Shown here piece after piece: positions 13,280 to 62,400 of a DNA stretch of 64,000 nt. The stretch is from a virus, in the IMG/VR virus record IMGVR_UViG_3300012931_000667, positions 1 to 64,000 of that record; one strand, written 5' to 3'. A program made the position numbers and the translations under genes. Position 1 is the stretch's first letter. Each line of letters opens with the position of its first letter. The notes under the pieces were generated by a model, which had not been told where the DNA came from, ran no database searches, and saw nothing but the letters and a program-made list of their open reading frames with translations.

Positions 13280-14485
13280 TTATAGAAAACTACTTTCTAA
13301 AATTAGGTCTTTTTCGGTAGAGGAATGATAACTTCCTCTAGTTAGAATATTTAAAGCCGCATTATAATCTGCATCTGCTTCAAATCCACAACTTTTACAT
13401 TGGTATTTCTCTCCTTGACGGTTTGATTTATCAACTTCACCACAATTTGAACAAATTTGACTTGTATAAGCTGGATTTACTTTTATCAATTGAAAACCTT
13501 TCTCTTGACTTCGTATCTCCAGCAAGTCTAAAACTTGGTTATAAGCAAAATATTGTTGTATATTTAATTGTTTTCTACTCAATTTAGATTTATATCTAAG
13601 TAATTTTAAATCTTCACATACTATTTTCTGTACATCATCATATTCATTTAGAAATAAATTAATATTCCTATTTATTGAATCCTTCTTATACTTTAAATAC
13701 TGACTATAATTTTTACTTCCTCGTACTTTATTAGAAAGTTTATTATAAATACTTTCCATTTCTTTACCATAATAGTCTTCATTTGAAGAGGATATCAATT
13801 TTTTATATCCTAAGTCAATACCTATAATTGGACCAACAGATTTTTTTATAGTATCCTCTTTTTCAAACATAAAAATAAATTCAAATTGTCCATTACAATT
13901 CTTTTTTAAAAATACTGTTTTTCTTCTATTCCAATCTTTGTATTTATTATATTGCTTATGATATTTAATGGGTAGATTTATTTGTATAGCTCGATGTTTA
14001 TTCTCATAAAAATAAGGTAATTTTAATCCTACAAATTCATTAAATTCTTTAGAATCAGTACTAAAATTAAATTGACGTTCATCTATAGGAATAGTAATAT
14101 TTTTTAATTGTATTTTAATTCTTTTCATATAGTTTATATTTAGTTCACTAAATTTTTTATTAGTAAATTGACTATGAATTCCTTTTTTAATAAAAATAGC
14201 ATACAATTTTTGATATTTCTTAAATGTTCTGTTTTTAGTATATTTTAAATTACTTCTTATTATTTCAGAAGCTTGTTTATATAATATTGATTTATAGTGA
14301 GAATGACTCAATCTAATTGTAGGTAATTCTTTACAGGATAATAATTTTTTAAAAGGTAAATTACCATTAAGAATTAATTTAATATATTCAGTTAAATCAC
14401 TATTATAATCAGTATATAGTTTTTCAAGTAAAGCTAACTTTTGAGTATTACTAAATTTAAGTGTTACTTTACTTGACCTTACCAT
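13280..14485 (-). CDS. tnpB: TnpB RNA-guided endonuclease
   Basis: RuvC-I IGIDLG, RuvC-II VCEDL, VNPAYTSQICSNC...CKSC zinc finger, RuvC-III DADYNAALNI. Confidence 0.93.
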   Translation of the reverse strand: MVRSSKVTLKFSNTQKLALLEKLYTDYNSDLTEYIKLILNGNLPFKKLLSCKELPTIRLSHSHYKSILYKQASEIIRSNLKYTKNRTFKKYQKLYAIFIKKGIHSQFTNKKFSELNINYMKRIKIQLKNITIPIDERQFNFSTDSKEFNEFVGLKLPYFYENKHRAIQINLPIKYHKQYNKYKDWNRRKTVFLKKNCNGQFEFIFMFEKEDTIKKSVGPIIGIDLGYKKLISSSNEDYYGKEMESIYNKLSNKVRGSKNYSQYLKYKKDSINRNINLFLNEYDDVQKIVCEDLKLLRYKSKLSRKQLNIQQYFAYNQVLDLLEIRSQEKGFQLIKVNPAYTSQICSNCGEVDKSNRQGEKYQCKSCGFEADADYNAALNILTRGSYHSSTEKDLILESSFL

Positions 14486-14504: not shown

Positions 14505-14514
14505 TATATAGTTA
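14505..14514 (-). promoter_or_regulatory. TAACTATWTA putative phage promoter upstream of tnpB
   Basis: TAACTATATA about 20 nt before the tnpB ATG; the same motif recurs upstream of many genes. Confidence 0.5.
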
Positions 14515-19450: not shown

Positions 19451-20002
19451 CTAGTCTAGTCCATAGGTTTTGATCTTATTAGCAATACCATATTTTATAC
19501 AATCTTTAGCTGTAAAATATTTTTCCTCATATTTTAATTTTATATCTAACATTGATTTAGGTATTCTAGTTTCTTTTTCATATATTGATTTCATAGAGTT
19601 ATTAAATTTAATAGCATAGTCAAGATCATCTTCACTATCACCAAGTTTAGGATCATCATTAGAAGTTCCATGACAAGAATGTATTAAAAATAATGATGAT
19701 GGTGATACATATCTATTTTCTCCTGCTAGATAAAGTAATGTACTAGCAGAACAACAATACCCATTTATGTATGTATTTACTGTTATAGGACAAGTTTTAA
19801 TATAGTCATAAGCTCCACATGGATCACCACCTAGTGAGTCTATCACTATATTTATTTCATCAAAATCTCTCATAGCAATTATTTCCATCATATATAATTG
19901 TAAATGATAAAAGGATACTCTATCTAATTCATCATAGAAAAAGATAGTATTATCTTTTTTATATACTGATATTAGTTCTTCTTTTGATGATCGATCAGCC
20001 AT
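19451..20002 (-). CDS. ClpP-like serine protease
   Basis: IDSLGG, GYCCSASTLLYLAG (catalytic Ser), FLIH, FTAKDCIKYGIA. Confidence 0.8.
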   Translation of the reverse strand: MADRSSKEELISVYKKDNTIFFYDELDRVSFYHLQLYMMEIIAMRDFDEINIVIDSLGGDPCGAYDYIKTCPITVNTYINGYCCSASTLLYLAGENRYVSPSSLFLIHSCHGTSNDDPKLGDSEDDLDYAIKFNNSMKSIYEKETRIPKSMLDIKLKYEEKYFTAKDCIKYGIANKIKTYGLD

Positions 20003-29764: not shown

Positions 29765-30642
29765 TTACCCTATTTTTTCAGCAAAATTTAAATCTATACT
29801 CATTCTCATACTTACTGAAGGTATTAATTGTAATGAATATGTATAATTAGGAGGAAATATAAAATATGATATTTCTGCTCCTGTAGTTCCTGTAGAAAAT
29901 TGACCAGGATTTGTACCATAATTTATTAGTCTATCTCTCATTAATGTTTGATATCCAGAAGTACTAATAGTATTTCCTGTATAGAATTTTGATCTAAAAG
30001 TATAACCATTAGTATTATATCTATTATAATTTATAGGATTGACTATTGTTCCTGAAACAGTTATTACAGGTCTCTCTTTTAATAAATATTGTACTTGACC
30101 TTGAGTTTCTATTACAACCCAAGCTAACATTACACAATCATTAATAGAAACTAATAAATTTAATTCAGTACCTTGAGTAGCTTGTAATGAAATAAATCCA
30201 TAATATCCATTATTTCTAAAAAATTCATCTGGTGATTCAAAAATAGGCATATTAGATTTAATATCAATAGGGATATCATCAAAAGCTCCCATTATTTATT
30301 ACCTCTTAAATATACTGTAACAGTACCAGAACTTGATATACTACTAAATTTCATTAAATTACAAGGTATAATTTTTGTACTAATACTAAAGTTAATACCT
30401 GAAAAAACTAATGGTCCAATGTGGATATATTCAAAGTGAATACCAGAAATAGTGTTAGTTACATCATTTATATATTTTTGTGAATTATTACTTAATTGAA
30501 TCTGATAAATAGGATTACCACTTATTACAGTTTGTATTGATATAGAAGAGAAATTACCACTTACTCCTAGTATTTTAGTTCCACTAGGAGTAAGAGTAAA
30601 TTGATAATTAGAACCTAAATACTCATCATAGAGTATAGACAT
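29765..30642 (-). CDS. Two hypothetical proteins (29765-30292, 30292-30642), possibly virion-associated
   Basis: S/T/G-rich, beta-strand-like composition; preceded by TAACTATTTA. Confidence 0.45.
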
Positions 30643-41573: not shown

Positions 41574-42851
41574 CTAAATAAAATTTCTACTTATAATTTC
41601 AACAGTAGGCTTTAATTCATTATGTACATTATAGGTTTCTAATTCTTCACTAATTTGATATCCATCAACACCATTAGTATTTTGTAAATCAATTTTAATA
41701 GCATTTACTGATAAATCGTTATCTACTAAGTATAAATTTTGACTAGCACGAGAATTATACATTAAATCATTTGAGTATGCATTACCTCCACATAAAGATG
41801 ATGATCGATAACTAAAATCAGTTAAACAAGCAGAATGATAATGCCCATAAAAAACACCATGGATAGAAATTCCTTCATATAAATACTTAGTTATTATTTG
41901 TGCTATAGACTTATCAATGGTTAATTGAGATTTAAAGTTATGTCCATGTAGTAGTAATGCATTGTAACCATTTTCCATTTTTACTATAGATTGCAAATTA
42001 TTCTTAGGTTTAATAAACTTAAAATTTGGGTATTTACCACTAAGCATTAAGTTTATATTATTACAAATTAAGTAATCCCAATTTTCAGAACTTAATATAT
42101 CTGTTGACTCCATCTCTTCATTAATTCTAGACTCATTACCAACACAAAAAGTAAAATATACTTTATATTTTTGTAATAATTCTAGTATTACTTGTTCTAA
42201 TAGTACTGTTGCTAATAAGGAAGCCCTAACTAAAGAAGAATTTTGTGCTAATTTTTCTGATAACCTTCTTTGAGAATTTACAAGATCGCCACTACACAAA
42301 ATGTATACAGTAGAACAGTTATAAAAGTCAAGAAGTTTTATAGACTCTGTAACATATTTTTTTAATCTTTTTGAAGCAATATTAAAATCATAACCATTAC
42401 CAAAACTTTCTTCAGGATATATTAATTCATTTAAATGTAAATCTGATAAATGTATGATACCAATTTTACCACCACTATTTATATTTGTGATATCTCTAAT
42501 TTTTATTTTAGGTAATTCAATTTTTTTAAGTAAGGATACATACTCACTATAAGTACTTTCTAGTATATTATATAATCTATAACTTTCTCTATTTTCTTTT
42601 CGTACTACATTATTTATATCTTGTAACTTTGTTTTTTGTGCATCAAGTTTTACAAAGGATTCTTCTGAAAAATCTAATTGTTCATTATTTCTTATTAATT
42701 CTTCATATGCTCTTCTTACTATTCTTTTATAAGATTCTAATGAATAATTACTATTAGTTTCATTAACACAAATTTCATATAAATCATAAATTACTTTTTT
42801 ATCAAAATTGTTTTCTCTAAGTTTTTGTTTTATCCAACTATAACAATTCAT
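41574..42851 (-). CDS. Calcineurin-like metallophosphoesterase/nuclease with N-terminal coiled coil
   Basis: HLSDLH, GDL, GNE, HGH, GHYH. Confidence 0.75.
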   Translation of the reverse strand: MNCYSWIKQKLRENNFDKKVIYDLYEICVNETNSNYSLESYKRIVRRAYEELIRNNEQLDFSEESFVKLDAQKTKLQDINNVVRKENRESYRLYNILESTYSEYVSLLKKIELPKIKIRDITNINSGGKIGIIHLSDLHLNELIYPEESFGNGYDFNIASKRLKKYVTESIKLLDFYNCSTVYILCSGDLVNSQRRLSEKLAQNSSLVRASLLATVLLEQVILELLQKYKVYFTFCVGNESRINEEMESTDILSSENWDYLICNNINLMLSGKYPNFKFIKPKNNLQSIVKMENGYNALLLHGHNFKSQLTIDKSIAQIITKYLYEGISIHGVFYGHYHSACLTDFSYRSSSLCGGNAYSNDLMYNSRASQNLYLVDNDLSVNAIKIDLQNTNGVDGYQISEELETYNVHNELKPTVEIISRNFI

Positions 42852-48672: not shown

Positions 48673-49524
48673 ATGGAAGAAAAAGTATTGTTACTTGAAG
48701 ATCGTAGATTTTATGTTTATATTTATCTAGACCCTAGAAAACCTGGAAATTACAACTATGGTGAATACCATTTTGATTTTGAACCTTTTTATGTTGGTAA
48801 AGGAAGTGGATATAGAGCTTGGAGTCATTTGCAATCTTATATGTTAAAAGAAACTGGAAATTTAAGAATTAATAAATTTAGAAAAATTATTAATAATGGA
48901 TATAAAATAGAACCTATAATAATTAAAACTAATATTTTAGAAAAAGAATCTTTTTATTATGAAAAATTATTAATTAAATTGATAGGAAGATATGATAAAA
49001 ATAAAGGACCATTAGTTAATCAAACAGATGGTGGAGAGGGTACTTGTGGAACTATTTTTTCTAAAGAAGCTATAGAAAAAATGAGACAAGCTAATTTAGG
49101 TAGAAGATATTCCAATGAAATTAATAAGAAAAAAGGAAGAAAAGGAAGATTAGTTTCAGAGGAAACTAAAGAAAAACATAAACAATATAAAGTTTCTGAA
49201 GAAGTAAAGAGAAAACAATCTAAAAATAAAGAAGGAAATAAAAATCCTAGATTTGGAAAACCAGCAATGAATAGAGTTAAAGTTATTTATGTAAATGAGA
49301 ATAAAGAATTTAATTCTTTATTAGAAGCTGGAGAGTACACTAATAGGTGTTCAAGTGATATTCACAAATGTTGTTCTGGAAAAGTAAAATCAATAGGAAG
49401 AAATAGTGGAAATAAATTTTATTTTATGTATGTATCAACTTATATTAGTTTATCTAATGAAGAAAAAAAACAATTATTATCTAATTTTGATTTAACACAA
49501 CAATTTATCTTAAACCATATATAA
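48673..49524 (+). CDS. Free-standing GIY-YIG-superfamily endonuclease (YVY...FYVGKG type) with NUMOD3/HTH
   Basis: FYVYIYLDPRK...PFYVGKG..R, E...LI, LVNQTDGGEG, SEETKEK units, C-terminal HTH. Confidence 0.8.
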   Translation: MEEKVLLLEDRRFYVYIYLDPRKPGNYNYGEYHFDFEPFYVGKGSGYRAWSHLQSYMLKETGNLRINKFRKIINNGYKIEPIIIKTNILEKESFYYEKLLIKLIGRYDKNKGPLVNQTDGGEGTCGTIFSKEAIEKMRQANLGRRYSNEINKKKGRKGRLVSEETKEKHKQYKVSEEVKRKQSKNKEGNKNPRFGKPAMNRVKVIYVNENKEFNSLLEAGEYTNRCSSDIHKCCSGKVKSIGRNSGNKFYFMYVSTYISLSNEEKKQLLSNFDLTQQFILNHI

Positions 49525-55109: not shown

Positions 55110-55342
55110 TGGAACAACAAAACTTTGATTATAGAATATGTTTTCATAAAATGATTCATAATGAAGAATATTATGAAATACATAAAGTATACTATAAAAA
55201 AGATGGAACGATAGATAGAATAATTGATGCTCATCCTATTATAGGGAAAACTATTAGCGATATGAATACTGCATTAGGCATGATGTTATGGGCGGATAAA
55301 AAACCCATTATAGATTATAGTACTAAAAAGGAGATAGAATAA
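55109..55342 (+). CDS. Hypothetical protein
   Basis: Short ORF coupled to the lipase gene. Confidence 0.55.
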   Translation: MEQQNFDYRICFHKMIHNEEYYEIHKVYYKKDGTIDRIIDAHPIIGKTISDMNTALGMMLWADKKPIIDYSTKKEIE

Positions 55343-55345
55343 TTT

Positions 55346-55465
55346 ATAGGGACAGCAAGGCGCTAACCTTGTTGCTAAGGTAATTCCAGCTTTAGCTAAC
55401 CTATTTTTTAATATTTTTAACTATTTAAAAATAGAAGTCTTTAGCGAGACTTAAAAGGAAAAATT
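55346..55465 (+). ncRNA. Structured endonuclease-leader RNA, copy 3
   Basis: P1 ATAGG/CCTAT, GAC, P2 AGCAAGG-CGCTAA-CCTTGTT, P3 GCTAAGG/CTTTAGC, TAA, T-tract, TAACTATTTA, P4 AAGTCT-TTAGCG-AGACTT, AAAGG RBS. Confidence 0.8.
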
Positions 55466-56416
55466 ATGGAAAATAGATTTCAAGAGGCATTTAGTAAATT
55501 ACCATCAGTTGATTTAGAGCATCAAATTCATTTGAATAGGTATATTAAATTTATTAGTAGCAGACTAGAAAGAAAATTTGAATATAAAAAAGGTTTGTGT
55601 AAACATCATGTACATCCTGTTTCTTTTGGAGCAAATAAAGGTTTTAAAGAAAAATGGAACATAATTGTACTAACAGAAAGAGAACATTTTATTGCTCATT
55701 TAATTCTATATAAATGCTATGGTGGAAAAATGACAAGAGCCTTTTTTATGATGAATAATGGAAAGAATATTTTAAGTGGTAATTATAGTAATTTAAATTC
55801 TAAACAATATGAAAAATTAAGAAAAGAGTATACAGAAAAAATAAGTGGAAAAGGTAATCCTATGTATGGTAAAGAAATGAAGGAAATAAATAAAAAATTA
55901 AGAAAAATTCTTTGGACAGGTAAAAATAATCCTATGTATAATTCAAAAAGATATAAAAATAAAAATCCTTTCTATGGTGAACATCATACTGAAGAAACTA
56001 AGATTAAATTAAAAAAAATAGATAAAACAAAAATAATGAAAAAAGTTATATTATTAAATACTAAAAAAATATTTAATAGTATAACAGAAGCTAGTAAGAT
56101 AACTAATATAAGTGCTAGTTCCATAATAGGTTGTTGTTCACATAATCCAAAAATTACTTGTACTCATTATGGATATGAAAATTATTATTGGTTATATATA
56201 GAAGAGTATGACCCTAATTTTGATTATAGCTATTTATTAGATTCTAAAAAAATTATTTGTATAGAAAAAAATGAAATATTTAATAGTGTAAAAGAATGTT
56301 CATTAAAAATGAATATTTCTGAAACATATTTATCATTATGTTGTAATAATAAAGTAGATTCTGCAAAAGGATATCATTTTATGAAGTATAATGCATATAA
56401 AGGAAAAAATGATTAA
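55466..56416 (+). CDS. Free-standing HNH homing endonuclease (Mob-like) with NUMOD and two HTH repeats
   Basis: KHHVHPVSFG...NIIVLTEREHFIAH, NPMYG/NPFYG, HTEETK, two FNS..E(A/C)S...CC repeats. Confidence 0.85.
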   Translation: MENRFQEAFSKLPSVDLEHQIHLNRYIKFISSRLERKFEYKKGLCKHHVHPVSFGANKGFKEKWNIIVLTEREHFIAHLILYKCYGGKMTRAFFMMNNGKNILSGNYSNLNSKQYEKLRKEYTEKISGKGNPMYGKEMKEINKKLRKILWTGKNNPMYNSKRYKNKNPFYGEHHTEETKIKLKKIDKTKIMKKVILLNTKKIFNSITEASKITNISASSIIGCCSHNPKITCTHYGYENYYWLYIEEYDPNFDYSYLLDSKKIICIEKNEIFNSVKECSLKMNISETYLSLCCNNKVDSAKGYHFMKYNAYKGKND

Positions 56417-61464: not shown

Positions 61465-62400
61465 ATGATTATAGGTATTTATAAAATAAGTAACAAAGTT
61501 AATGGAAAGGTTTATATTGGACAATCTTGGAATATTGAAAAAAGATTTAAAGAACATAGAAAAAGAGAACTTAATAATCATTTAAAAAATGCTTTTAATA
61601 AATATGAAATTGAAAATTTTTCTTTTGAAATAATAATGACCTTTAAAAATGGTCCCTTTACTCAAAAATATTTAGATAAATTTGAAGATTATTACATTAA
61701 ATTTTATGATTCAATGAATAGTAAAAAAGGATATAATAAACGTGAAGGAGGAAGTAATGGAAAGATGTCTAAAGAGTCAAAAATTAAAATAGGTAATGCT
61801 AGTAGAGGTGAAAAAAATGCTAATTATGGAAAAAAATTTTCTAAAGAAACCTTATTTAAAATGAGAATAGCTAAATTAGGAATTAAACAATCTGAAGAAC
61901 TTAAAATAAAAAGAGGAATATATAAAAAAGGAAAAGATAATCCTCACTATGGCATTATTCGTTCTGATGAAACAAAATATAAAATAAAAATTAGTAGAAA
62001 TAAAATGGCTGTTGTCTGTATAGAGACTAAAGAAAAATTTGATTCTGTAACAGAAGCTAGTAAAAAATATAAAATAGATAAAAAATCAATATTAAATGTT
62101 TGTAGAAATATTATCAATTATAATACTGCTGGTGGCTTTCATTGGATGTTTTTAAGTGATTATGATGAAAATAAAATTTATAATTTTAGAAAAAACAAAA
62201 CAAATGAAATTAAGGTAATAAATATAGATACTATGGAAATTTTTGATTCAATTACAAAAGCCGCTAAAAAATATAATTTATCTATTTCTAATATTCATTC
62301 TTGTTGTAATAAAAAACAAAAAACTGCTGGTGGTTATCAATGGATGTACTATATTGAATATTTAAAATTAGGACTTGACAAGAAAAGTATAATATGTTAG
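61465..62400 (+). CDS. Free-standing GIY-YIG homing endonuclease with NUMOD3 and two HTH repeats
   Basis: GIYKISNKVNGKVYIGQS, GYN, two FDS.T.A.K...AGG.(H/Q)W repeats. Confidence 0.9.
   Translation: MIIGIYKISNKVNGKVYIGQSWNIEKRFKEHRKRELNNHLKNAFNKYEIENFSFEIIMTFKNGPFTQKYLDKFEDYYIKFYDSMNSKKGYNKREGGSNGKMSKESKIKIGNASRGEKNANYGKKFSKETLFKMRIAKLGIKQSEELKIKRGIYKKGKDNPHYGIIRSDETKYKIKISRNKMAVVCIETKEKFDSVTEASKKYKIDKKSILNVCRNIINYNTAGGFHWMFLSDYDENKIYNFRKNKTNEIKVINIDTMEIFDSITKAAKKYNLSISNIHSCCNKKQKTAGGYQWMYYIEYLKLGLDKKSIIC

Follow-up and report, generated by a model that had tools for sequence, protein, structure and literature searches.

An uncatalogued leader RNA with a three-way junction and two loop pairings in front of phage homing endonuclease genes

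Introduction

Free-standing homing endonucleases must be expressed in a way that spares the phage carrying them, and the solution known so far is a simple RBS hairpin in T-even phages. The leaders of I-TevI, I-TevII, I-TevIII, segB (T4) and mobE (Aeh1) possess such an RBS-sequestering hairpin, with an embedded late or middle promoter (PMC2988022). The locus described here raises the question of what a leader with several hairpins and complementary loops does in front of an HNH endonuclease gene. The stretch of DNA that was analysed (the window) comprises 64,000 nucleotides, positions 1 to 64,000 of IMG/VR record IMGVR_UViG_3300012931_000667, and is part of a 77.9-kb viral contig with 25% GC, from a wetland metagenome and estimated to be 39% complete. 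A preliminary description of the sequence had proposed a kissing-loop leader RNA at this site, the third copy of its kind. Here we give an account of its structure, its relatives and its possible role.

Materials and methods

Copies of the leader were located over the 77.9-kb contig with nhmmer and a covariance model. Relatives in other contigs were collected with a pattern that covered the 5' domain only (GGACARYAGG, L2, CCTRYTG, P3 and CTAAC) and required nothing downstream; an initial collection pattern (TAACTAT plus CTTAAAAGG) had given chance matches only. From the matches listed, high-GC chance matches were removed before 53 strict members were defined. Conservation of P2 and of the junction is fixed by the search pattern, and the shuffle statistics are inflated by relatedness among the members.

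Locus and cargo gene

The leader (55343-55468) takes up the space from a 77-aa ORF, whose stop codon is at 55340-55342, to a 316-aa ORF, which opens with its ATG at 55466. The product of the latter matches PHROG 655 at 7.6e-27 and PHROG 12434 and carries the Pfam domains NUMOD1 and NUMOD3, and its tblastn matches are annotated HNH homing endonucleases. The assignment of an HNH cargo to this copy and of GIY-YIG cargos to copies 1 and 2, made in the preliminary description, is thus borne out by PHROG, Pfam and tblastn. Downstream, an SF2 helicase gene starts at 56391 and overlaps the 3' end of the endonuclease gene (to 56416) by 26 nt, so that the start region of the neighbouring helicase is supplied by the endonuclease cassette; some T4 seg and mob genes have been described as doing likewise. 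A group I intron with a homing endonuclease ORF was rejected, since the upstream ORF stops at 55342 and the downstream gene is a separate helicase; the Rfam search gave no Intron_gpI match in the window.

The contig contains four copies of the leader, three of them inside the window, and each stands directly before a homing endonuclease gene (two GIY-YIG, one Mob-like HNH, one endonuclease VII-like). All four share the order P1-GA-P2-P3-CUAA-P1', a T-rich TAACTAT linker, P4, UAAAAGGAAAAA and ATG. A further GIY-YIG gene at 61465-62400 (+), which matches PHROG 314 at 3.6e-38, adjoins the ORF before it (61462) without any copy of the leader; the clamp proposed below is therefore not common to all endonuclease cassettes of this phage.

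Table 1. Coordinates of the copy 3 leader and its cargo gene, of the sister copies, and of genes with TAACTAT close to the start codon. Positions refer to the window unless marked as genome.
Feature	Position	Strand	Remarks
P1 5' arm, ATAGG	55346..55350	+	3 nt past stop of upstream 77-aa ORF; P1 covaries in family
J1/2, GA of three-way junction	55351..55352	+	invariant across the four copies of this genome
P2 hairpin: CAGCAAGG 55353-55360, L2 CGCTAA 55361-55366, CCTTGTTG 55367-55374	55353..55374	+	third pair is a G.U wobble
P3 hairpin: CTAAGGT, L3 AATTCCA 55382-55388, GCTTTAG	55375..55395	+	P3 pairs covary in family
J3/1, conserved CTAA	55396..55399	+	shared by the four copies of this genome
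P1 3' arm, CCTAT	55400..55404	+	sequence and covariation
T-rich linker with TAACTAT (55418-55424), candidate phage promoter element	55405..55434	+	P4 begins 10 nt later
P4 hairpin: AAGTC 55435-55439, loop TTTAGCGA, GACTT 55448-55452; L4 TTAGCG 55441-55446	55435..55452	+	
A-rich tract: SD AAAGGA 55454-55459, ATG 55466-55468	55453..55468	+	motif UAAAAGGNAAAA after P4 recurs in family
Cargo gene, 316-aa Mob-like HNH homing endonuclease with NUMOD1 and NUMOD3	55466..56416	+	
Leader copy 3, L2/L4 CGCTAA/TTAGCG	55343-55468	+	before HNH gene
Sister copy (copy 1), L2 TTCCCG / L4 CGGGAA	16211..16336	-	before GIY-YIG gene 16213-15431
Sister copy (copy 2), L2 TTGACG / L4 CGTCAA	48557..48675	+	before GIY-YIG gene 48673-49524
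Fourth copy, outside window, CTACTAA/TTAGTAG	genome 75476-75594	+	endonuclease VII-like cargo
Gene with TAACTAT 6-8 nt before start	19451-20002	-	
Gene with TAACTAT 6-8 nt before start	30292-30642	-	
Gene with TAACTAT 6-8 nt before start	41574-42851	-	
Gene with TAACTAT 6-8 nt before start	genome 65235-65639	+	
Gene with TAACTAT 6-8 nt before start	genome 70909-71283	+	

Structure of the leader

The preliminary description had read P1 as ATAGG/CCTAT, P2 as lengthened by one pair and the two loops as CGCTAA and TTAGCG. The P1 arms pair as described, P2 has 8 bp compared with 7 in the other copies, and both loop sequences and their coordinates are exact to the base (Table 1). The P4 loop is 8 nt long and contains TTAGCG, the exact complement of L2, with a computed L2:L4 duplex of -7.5 kcal/mol. 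The complementarity is exactly 6 nt because the flanks (G..C around L2, T..A around L4) add no pairing; the Watson-Crick match is indeed limited to the six loop bases, compared by alignment with lengths of 8 and 10 nt for the 48.5-kb and 16.3-kb copies, respectively.

With the family covariance model, copy 3 scores 101.5 bits (E 6e-16), with the P1-GA-P2-P3-CUAA-P1' layout present. The MFE fold recovers P2, P3 and P4 and closes the junction with a different outer helix, and P1 thus rests on sequence and covariation. One base, G55374, has two possible partners, C55353 in P2 or C55396 in P3. The SD is unpaired in the predicted fold and lies outside any predicted local helix. The GA of J1/2 is fixed by the search pattern in relatives, and its conservation can therefore not be claimed beyond the four copies of this genome. 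Two further helices, an A-tract/U-tract pairing and a pairing of P1' with the segment before P4, were rejected as not conserved.

Relatives in other contigs

The 5'-domain pattern matched 21 stretches in IMG/VR; more than 117 matches in metagenome contigs were listed, and a few others in MAG contigs. The relatives found in this way in viral and metagenome contigs number more than 100. An exact complement of L2 of at least 6 nt, at most 130 nt downstream, was present in 48/53 strict members, compared with 2.5% when L2 was swapped between members, which excludes a chance origin of the L2/L4 match. With a looser filter the complement was found in 57 of 65 members, and in all 57 it forms the 6-8-nt loop of a 4-10-bp hairpin. 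The 53 strict members carry 40 distinct L2 sequences. That these 40 versions each have their exact complement as a downstream hairpin loop, while the surrounding stems covary independently, supports the earlier claim of true loop-loop pairing instead of a long inverted repeat.

Covariation was assessed on 59 model-aligned members, in which 93.3% of cells are paired (69.3% after shuffling) and both sides vary in 22 of the 25 pairs. The alignment has a covariation score of 0.606, compared with 0.184 for shuffled alignments and at most 0.147 for slid registers. Four of the five P1 pairs and all eight P3 pairs change on both sides, and P4 covaries strongly. Covariation thus shows the structure and the L2:L4 pairing, and the L3 pairing described below is likewise shown by covariation.

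Where inspected, the downstream ORFs of relatives encode GIY-YIG, HNH or zinc-finger/NUMOD proteins. Some relatives depart from the common plan. Five have the junction only, without an L4 partner (L104, L110, L118, L143 and the second copy in L151); in L110 a loop AAAUCUCU stands opposite GGAGAUUU at the SD, as read by eye, and L118 and L143 are remnant-like, with no ORF behind. The contigs L046 (1501-1635, minus strand) and L050 (G002/G003, a phage of about 160 kb) provide a divergent variant, with another junction and P2 sequence, the same architecture and a kiss of its own (TTAGTAC/GTACTAA), and a sister element that has the junction and lacks P4. The family is therefore wider than the search pattern.

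No catalogued counterpart was found. Rfam gave no match in the window at the gathering threshold, only chance-level matches (E 0.85-10) for 55300-55500 at E<10, and tRNAs only on 18 related loci. A blastn search of the region and one related leader against cultured phages gave no match, and model R2 had none in T4, Aeromonas phages 25 and 65, Acinetobacter phage 133 or the 349-kb Vibrio phage 2.275.O. A protein search with the GIY-YIG cargo returned four loci, of which the one searched with the model (L033) scored at chance level (E 0.05). Literature searches found no published description of the leader family.

Pairing of the P3 loop with the translation start

A second long-range contact joins L3 to the region of the start codon. 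In copy 3, UUCCA of L3 (55384-55388) pairs with UGGAA over the AUG (55467-55471) at -5.2 kcal/mol, a short pairing compared with many relatives. The same 5 bp occur in the 48.5-kb copy and 4 bp in the fourth copy; duplex calculation found no L3:TIR pairing in the 16.3-kb copy. Across 51 members the best duplex of L3 with its own TIR has a mean of -6.06 kcal/mol, compared with -3.10 kcal/mol for shuffled L3 (z -13.9), -4.02 kcal/mol when L3 is permuted among members (z -10.9), -3.56 kcal/mol for reversed L3 and -1.5 kcal/mol for L3 on coding sequence. The targets are the SD, or the AUG plus codons 2-3; examples are UUCUCC/GGAGAA, UCUUCCA/UGGAAGA over the AUG, and UAAUCAU/AUGAUUA. P4 ends 4 nt ahead of the SD tract in this phage and is 20-30 nt upstream in relatives with long L3:SD pairings. 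The interpretation of the leader as a loop-loop pairing, supported as it is, was thus incomplete: it covered neither the L3 pairing nor the promoter-like TAACTAT linker nor the large family.

Linker motif and proposed mechanism

Three short motifs recur in the linker between the junction and P4, namely TAACTAT (31 members), TATAAATA (9) and ACTAAT (6), where 0.36, 0.07 and 0.1 are expected by chance. TAACTAT stands 7-10 nt before P4 in 26 of its 31 members (range 7-15, mode 8), and TATAAATA stands 1-5 nt before it (mode 4) in 8/9, the ninth having a tRNA gene inserted in a linker of 98 nt. TATAAATA corresponds to the T4-type late-promoter consensus. T4 late transcripts start about 6 nt after this sequence, and at that distance the start would fall at the foot of P4.

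Among the non-SD heptamer groups of the present genome, TAACTAT alone is enriched upstream of ORFs, lying at most 70 nt upstream of 17/106 ORFs against 2.3 expected (7.3-fold). Its distribution and spacing are promoter-like. The genes preceded by the motif, among them an exonuclease, a NUDIX protein, a prohead protease and an RNA ligase, are of mixed classes, and TAACTAT can therefore not be called a late promoter. Five genes have it 6-8 nt before the start codon with no SD between (Table 1), which suggests leaderless mRNAs from a phage-specific promoter-like element; leaderless messages with an equal distance from motif to start would be expected to show this spacing. A 401-aa ORF at 13280-14485 (-) has TTTTTAACTAT at 14508-14514, 22 nt before its start. 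A scan of the leader for sigma-70 promoters and intrinsic terminators found neither, and TAACTAT is not a sigma-70 consensus. P1 plus the U-run was considered as a terminator and dropped, as no terminator is predicted in the leader; the U-run is confined to the TAACTAT group of members.

These elements can be combined in the following model. The stretch of about 120 nt from 55346 to 55468 would be transcribed as part of an mRNA, and its 5' half would fold into the three-way junction, which may clamp the translation start of the endonuclease in cis. L2 would kiss the loop of P4, the hairpin that ends just ahead of the SD tract, and L3 would cover the start-codon region or, in many relatives, the SD. 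On read-through transcripts from upstream genes both contacts could form and initiation would be blocked, which would keep the nuclease low. A phage-type promoter between the junction and P4 (TAACTAT here) may give transcripts that begin at the foot of P4; these would be without the clamp, hence translatable, and P4 as a 5'-terminal hairpin could also stabilise the message. Production of the RNA, translational repression, timing, promoter activity of TAACTAT and a start near P4 are all inferred in the absence of expression data. We consider a cis clamp that represses translation and is bypassed by an internal promoter probable, without regarding it as secure. The bypass is in any case not universal, because 10/57 members have a short linker without a recognisable motif.

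The same ten members, with linkers too short or too plain for a promoter, would fit a different account, in which the leader is a constant throttle that dampens all transcripts, TAACTAT is merely part of the RNA, and ribosomes finishing the upstream ORF melt P1 and loosen the clamp. The upstream stop codon lies 3-12 nt before the leader in all four copies of this genome, as such translational coupling would have it, and some T4 homing endonuclease genes use coupling too (PMC2988022). A throttle of this kind does not explain why the linker motif switches with the type of phage while promoter-like spacing is kept, or why TAACTAT also precedes 13 unrelated genes in this genome, and no ribosome would reach the many members that come after a tRNA gene. 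We regard it as unlikely, yet still to be reckoned with.

Specificity of the loop pairs

Within the bypassed cis clamp that we favour, the variability of L2 and L4 bears on whether each leader governs its own gene alone. In the 4x4 matrix of L2:L4 energies for the four copies, the cognate duplex is the most stable in every row and column (cognate -7.3 to -13.8 kcal/mol, non-cognate -5.0 kcal/mol or weaker). Control by each junction of only its own P4, a prediction of the preliminary description, fits these duplex energies, for which there are no regulation data. One may speculate, at rather long odds, that the L2/L4 hexamers form a private address code that prevents cross-regulation between cassettes of the same or of co-infecting phages, in cis and possibly in trans, and that the P2 wobble marks the place at which the clamp is set, be it by a metal ion or by a factor of phage or host. 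If true, the address code would be a natural set of dozens of orthogonal RNA-RNA switches.

In a reading with action in trans, the junction would come free, perhaps as the 3' end of the upstream message, and would find its own endonuclease mRNA by the L2/L4 code, which would differ between cassettes so that cross-talk is avoided. The codes are all different within a genome (4/4 here, 4/4 in G002 and 2/2 in G001), cognate duplexes exceed non-cognate ones in stability by 2.3 kcal/mol or more, and 2-5 compensated L2/L4 changes separate close relatives that share a cargo, with an L2 divergence of 0.255 per site compared with 0.124 elsewhere (only 9 pairs). With 40 L2 types among 53 members, however, all-different sets are expected by chance, and selection for different codes within a genome can therefore not be demonstrated. 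Moreover, L2 and L4 are always near neighbours in cis, the scan predicts no terminator behind P1', and there is no evidence of a separate small RNA, so that a regulator acting in trans appears improbable.

CopA/CopT of plasmid R1 and RNAI/RNAII of ColE1 are antisense kissing regulators that act in trans from the opposite strand. They resemble the present leader in a short loop-loop contact that comes first, in the specificity of the loop sequence and in a block of translation or priming; here, by contrast, both partners lie on one strand and in one transcript.

The third pair of P2 and possible ligand recognition

The third pair of P2 is G.U in 49 of 57 members and A.C in the remaining 8, and in none is it Watson-Crick. 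The search pattern permitted four combinations at this wobble, and non-members show all four, which suggests that the wobble geometry is recognised by something. A junction that binds a protein or a small ligand and so decides on closure of the clamp would account for this, with P2, the GA and CUAA strands and the wobble as the candidate site, since G.U and the isosteric A.C point to recognition of a shape and not merely of a pair. No Rfam riboswitch matched even at E<10, though, no mutually exclusive alternative helix was seen, conserved positions are few, and the divergent member L046 has a different junction. We give a sensor only slight credence.

The purine riboswitch has an L2-L3 kiss in a three-way junction, and the guanidine-IV (mepA) riboswitch has a kiss between two hairpins. 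As is proposed for the present leader, a three-way junction or a loop-loop kiss in cis governs the downstream gene. The kissing sequence of the leader is variable (40 versions) where theirs is conserved, no ligand pocket or terminator is evident, and the hairpin reached by the kiss lies about 70 nt from the junction, beyond the candidate promoter.

The tract after P4, tRNA clusters and processing

An A-rich motif, UAAAAGGNAAAA or UAAAAAUUAAAAU, is conserved after P4 (55453-55465 and relatives), even where a separate AGGAG SD follows further downstream; it could be an S1 site, an RNase E site or a tertiary contact. Other members lie inside phage tRNA clusters (L073, L079, L097, L101, L181 and L196), with TATAAATA or a similar AT-rich linker, and their junction often begins 0-2 nt past a tRNA 3' end. 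In L190 (3303-3500) and in the MAG contig L226 a complete tRNA gene is located within the leader, between junction/TATAAATA and P4, and the complement TTGCTG/CAGCAA is preserved despite this insertion of about 105 nt. The arrangement of T4 segB is like that of the tRNA-cluster members, yet T4 itself is without the leader.

The conserved A/U-rich tract and the heavy processing of transcripts from tRNA clusters could also indicate that the endonuclease message is separated from the upstream one by an RNA processing or stability element or by a self-cleaving ribozyme, and RNase E processing has been reported near T4 segB, segG and Aeh1 mobE (PMC2988022). Such an element would leave the tracking of SD or AUG by L3 unexplained, and no known ribozyme core and no Rfam match are present; we think it very improbable. 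Hammerhead, pistol and twister-type ribozymes were rejected, none of their conserved cores being present. Finally, a feature of the DNA, be it an inverted repeat for recombination or a target site of a protein or nuclease, can be practically discarded: L2 and L4 do make up a formal inverted repeat, and the element moves together with mobile genes, but at the DNA level the conserved G.U and A.C pairs have no complementarity, the element is always oriented like the downstream gene, the complementarity falls exactly within two hairpin loops, and L3 tracks translation signals.

Comparison with T-even leaders

A cis clamp bypassed from within would agree with the T-even leaders in several respects. 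In both cases the element is directly upstream of a phage homing endonuclease gene, and RNA pairing covers, or is proposed to cover, the start on long transcripts, presumably so that a risky nuclease is kept low or late. Transcripts that start at an internal promoter and lack the inhibitory 5' part belong to the regulation documented for the T-even leaders (PMC2988022); here they are inferred from the distribution of the linker motif, its replacement by TATAAATA and its spacing. In the T-even phages, however, a single local hairpin holds the SD, whereas here the SD is outside any hairpin, and a three-way junction spans the candidate promoter with two long-range contacts, the kiss with P4 and the pairing with AUG or SD. 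No homology to the T4-type or Aeh1-type leaders is seen, model R2 being without a match in T4 and four other cultured large phages, and the T4 segB leader is only 41 nt long. The seg43(25) leader of Aeromonas phage 25 has a stable hairpin just upstream of the RBS that does not cover it, and its role was left open (PMC2988022). Like P4, that hairpin ends right before the unsequestered RBS of a seg-type gene; there is no model match in phage 25, though, and no junction or kissing partner is known there.

Conclusions

The leader in front of the HNH endonuclease gene belongs to an uncatalogued RNA family, and we interpret it as a new structural variant of the T4 I-TevI-type regulatory principle, with the function inferred and not demonstrated. 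It is a portable control module found with unrelated nuclease families (GIY-YIG, HNH and endonuclease VII-like) in phages of 25-50% GC, and it keeps one architecture while its promoter-like motif follows the type of phage. Its copies number more than 100, its naturally validated kissing pairs about 40; it ranks among the best covariation-supported pseudoknotted RNAs outside Rfam and is a ready source of orthogonal loop-loop pairs for RNA engineering. The timing of selfish-gene expression by phages can also be put to a direct test with it.
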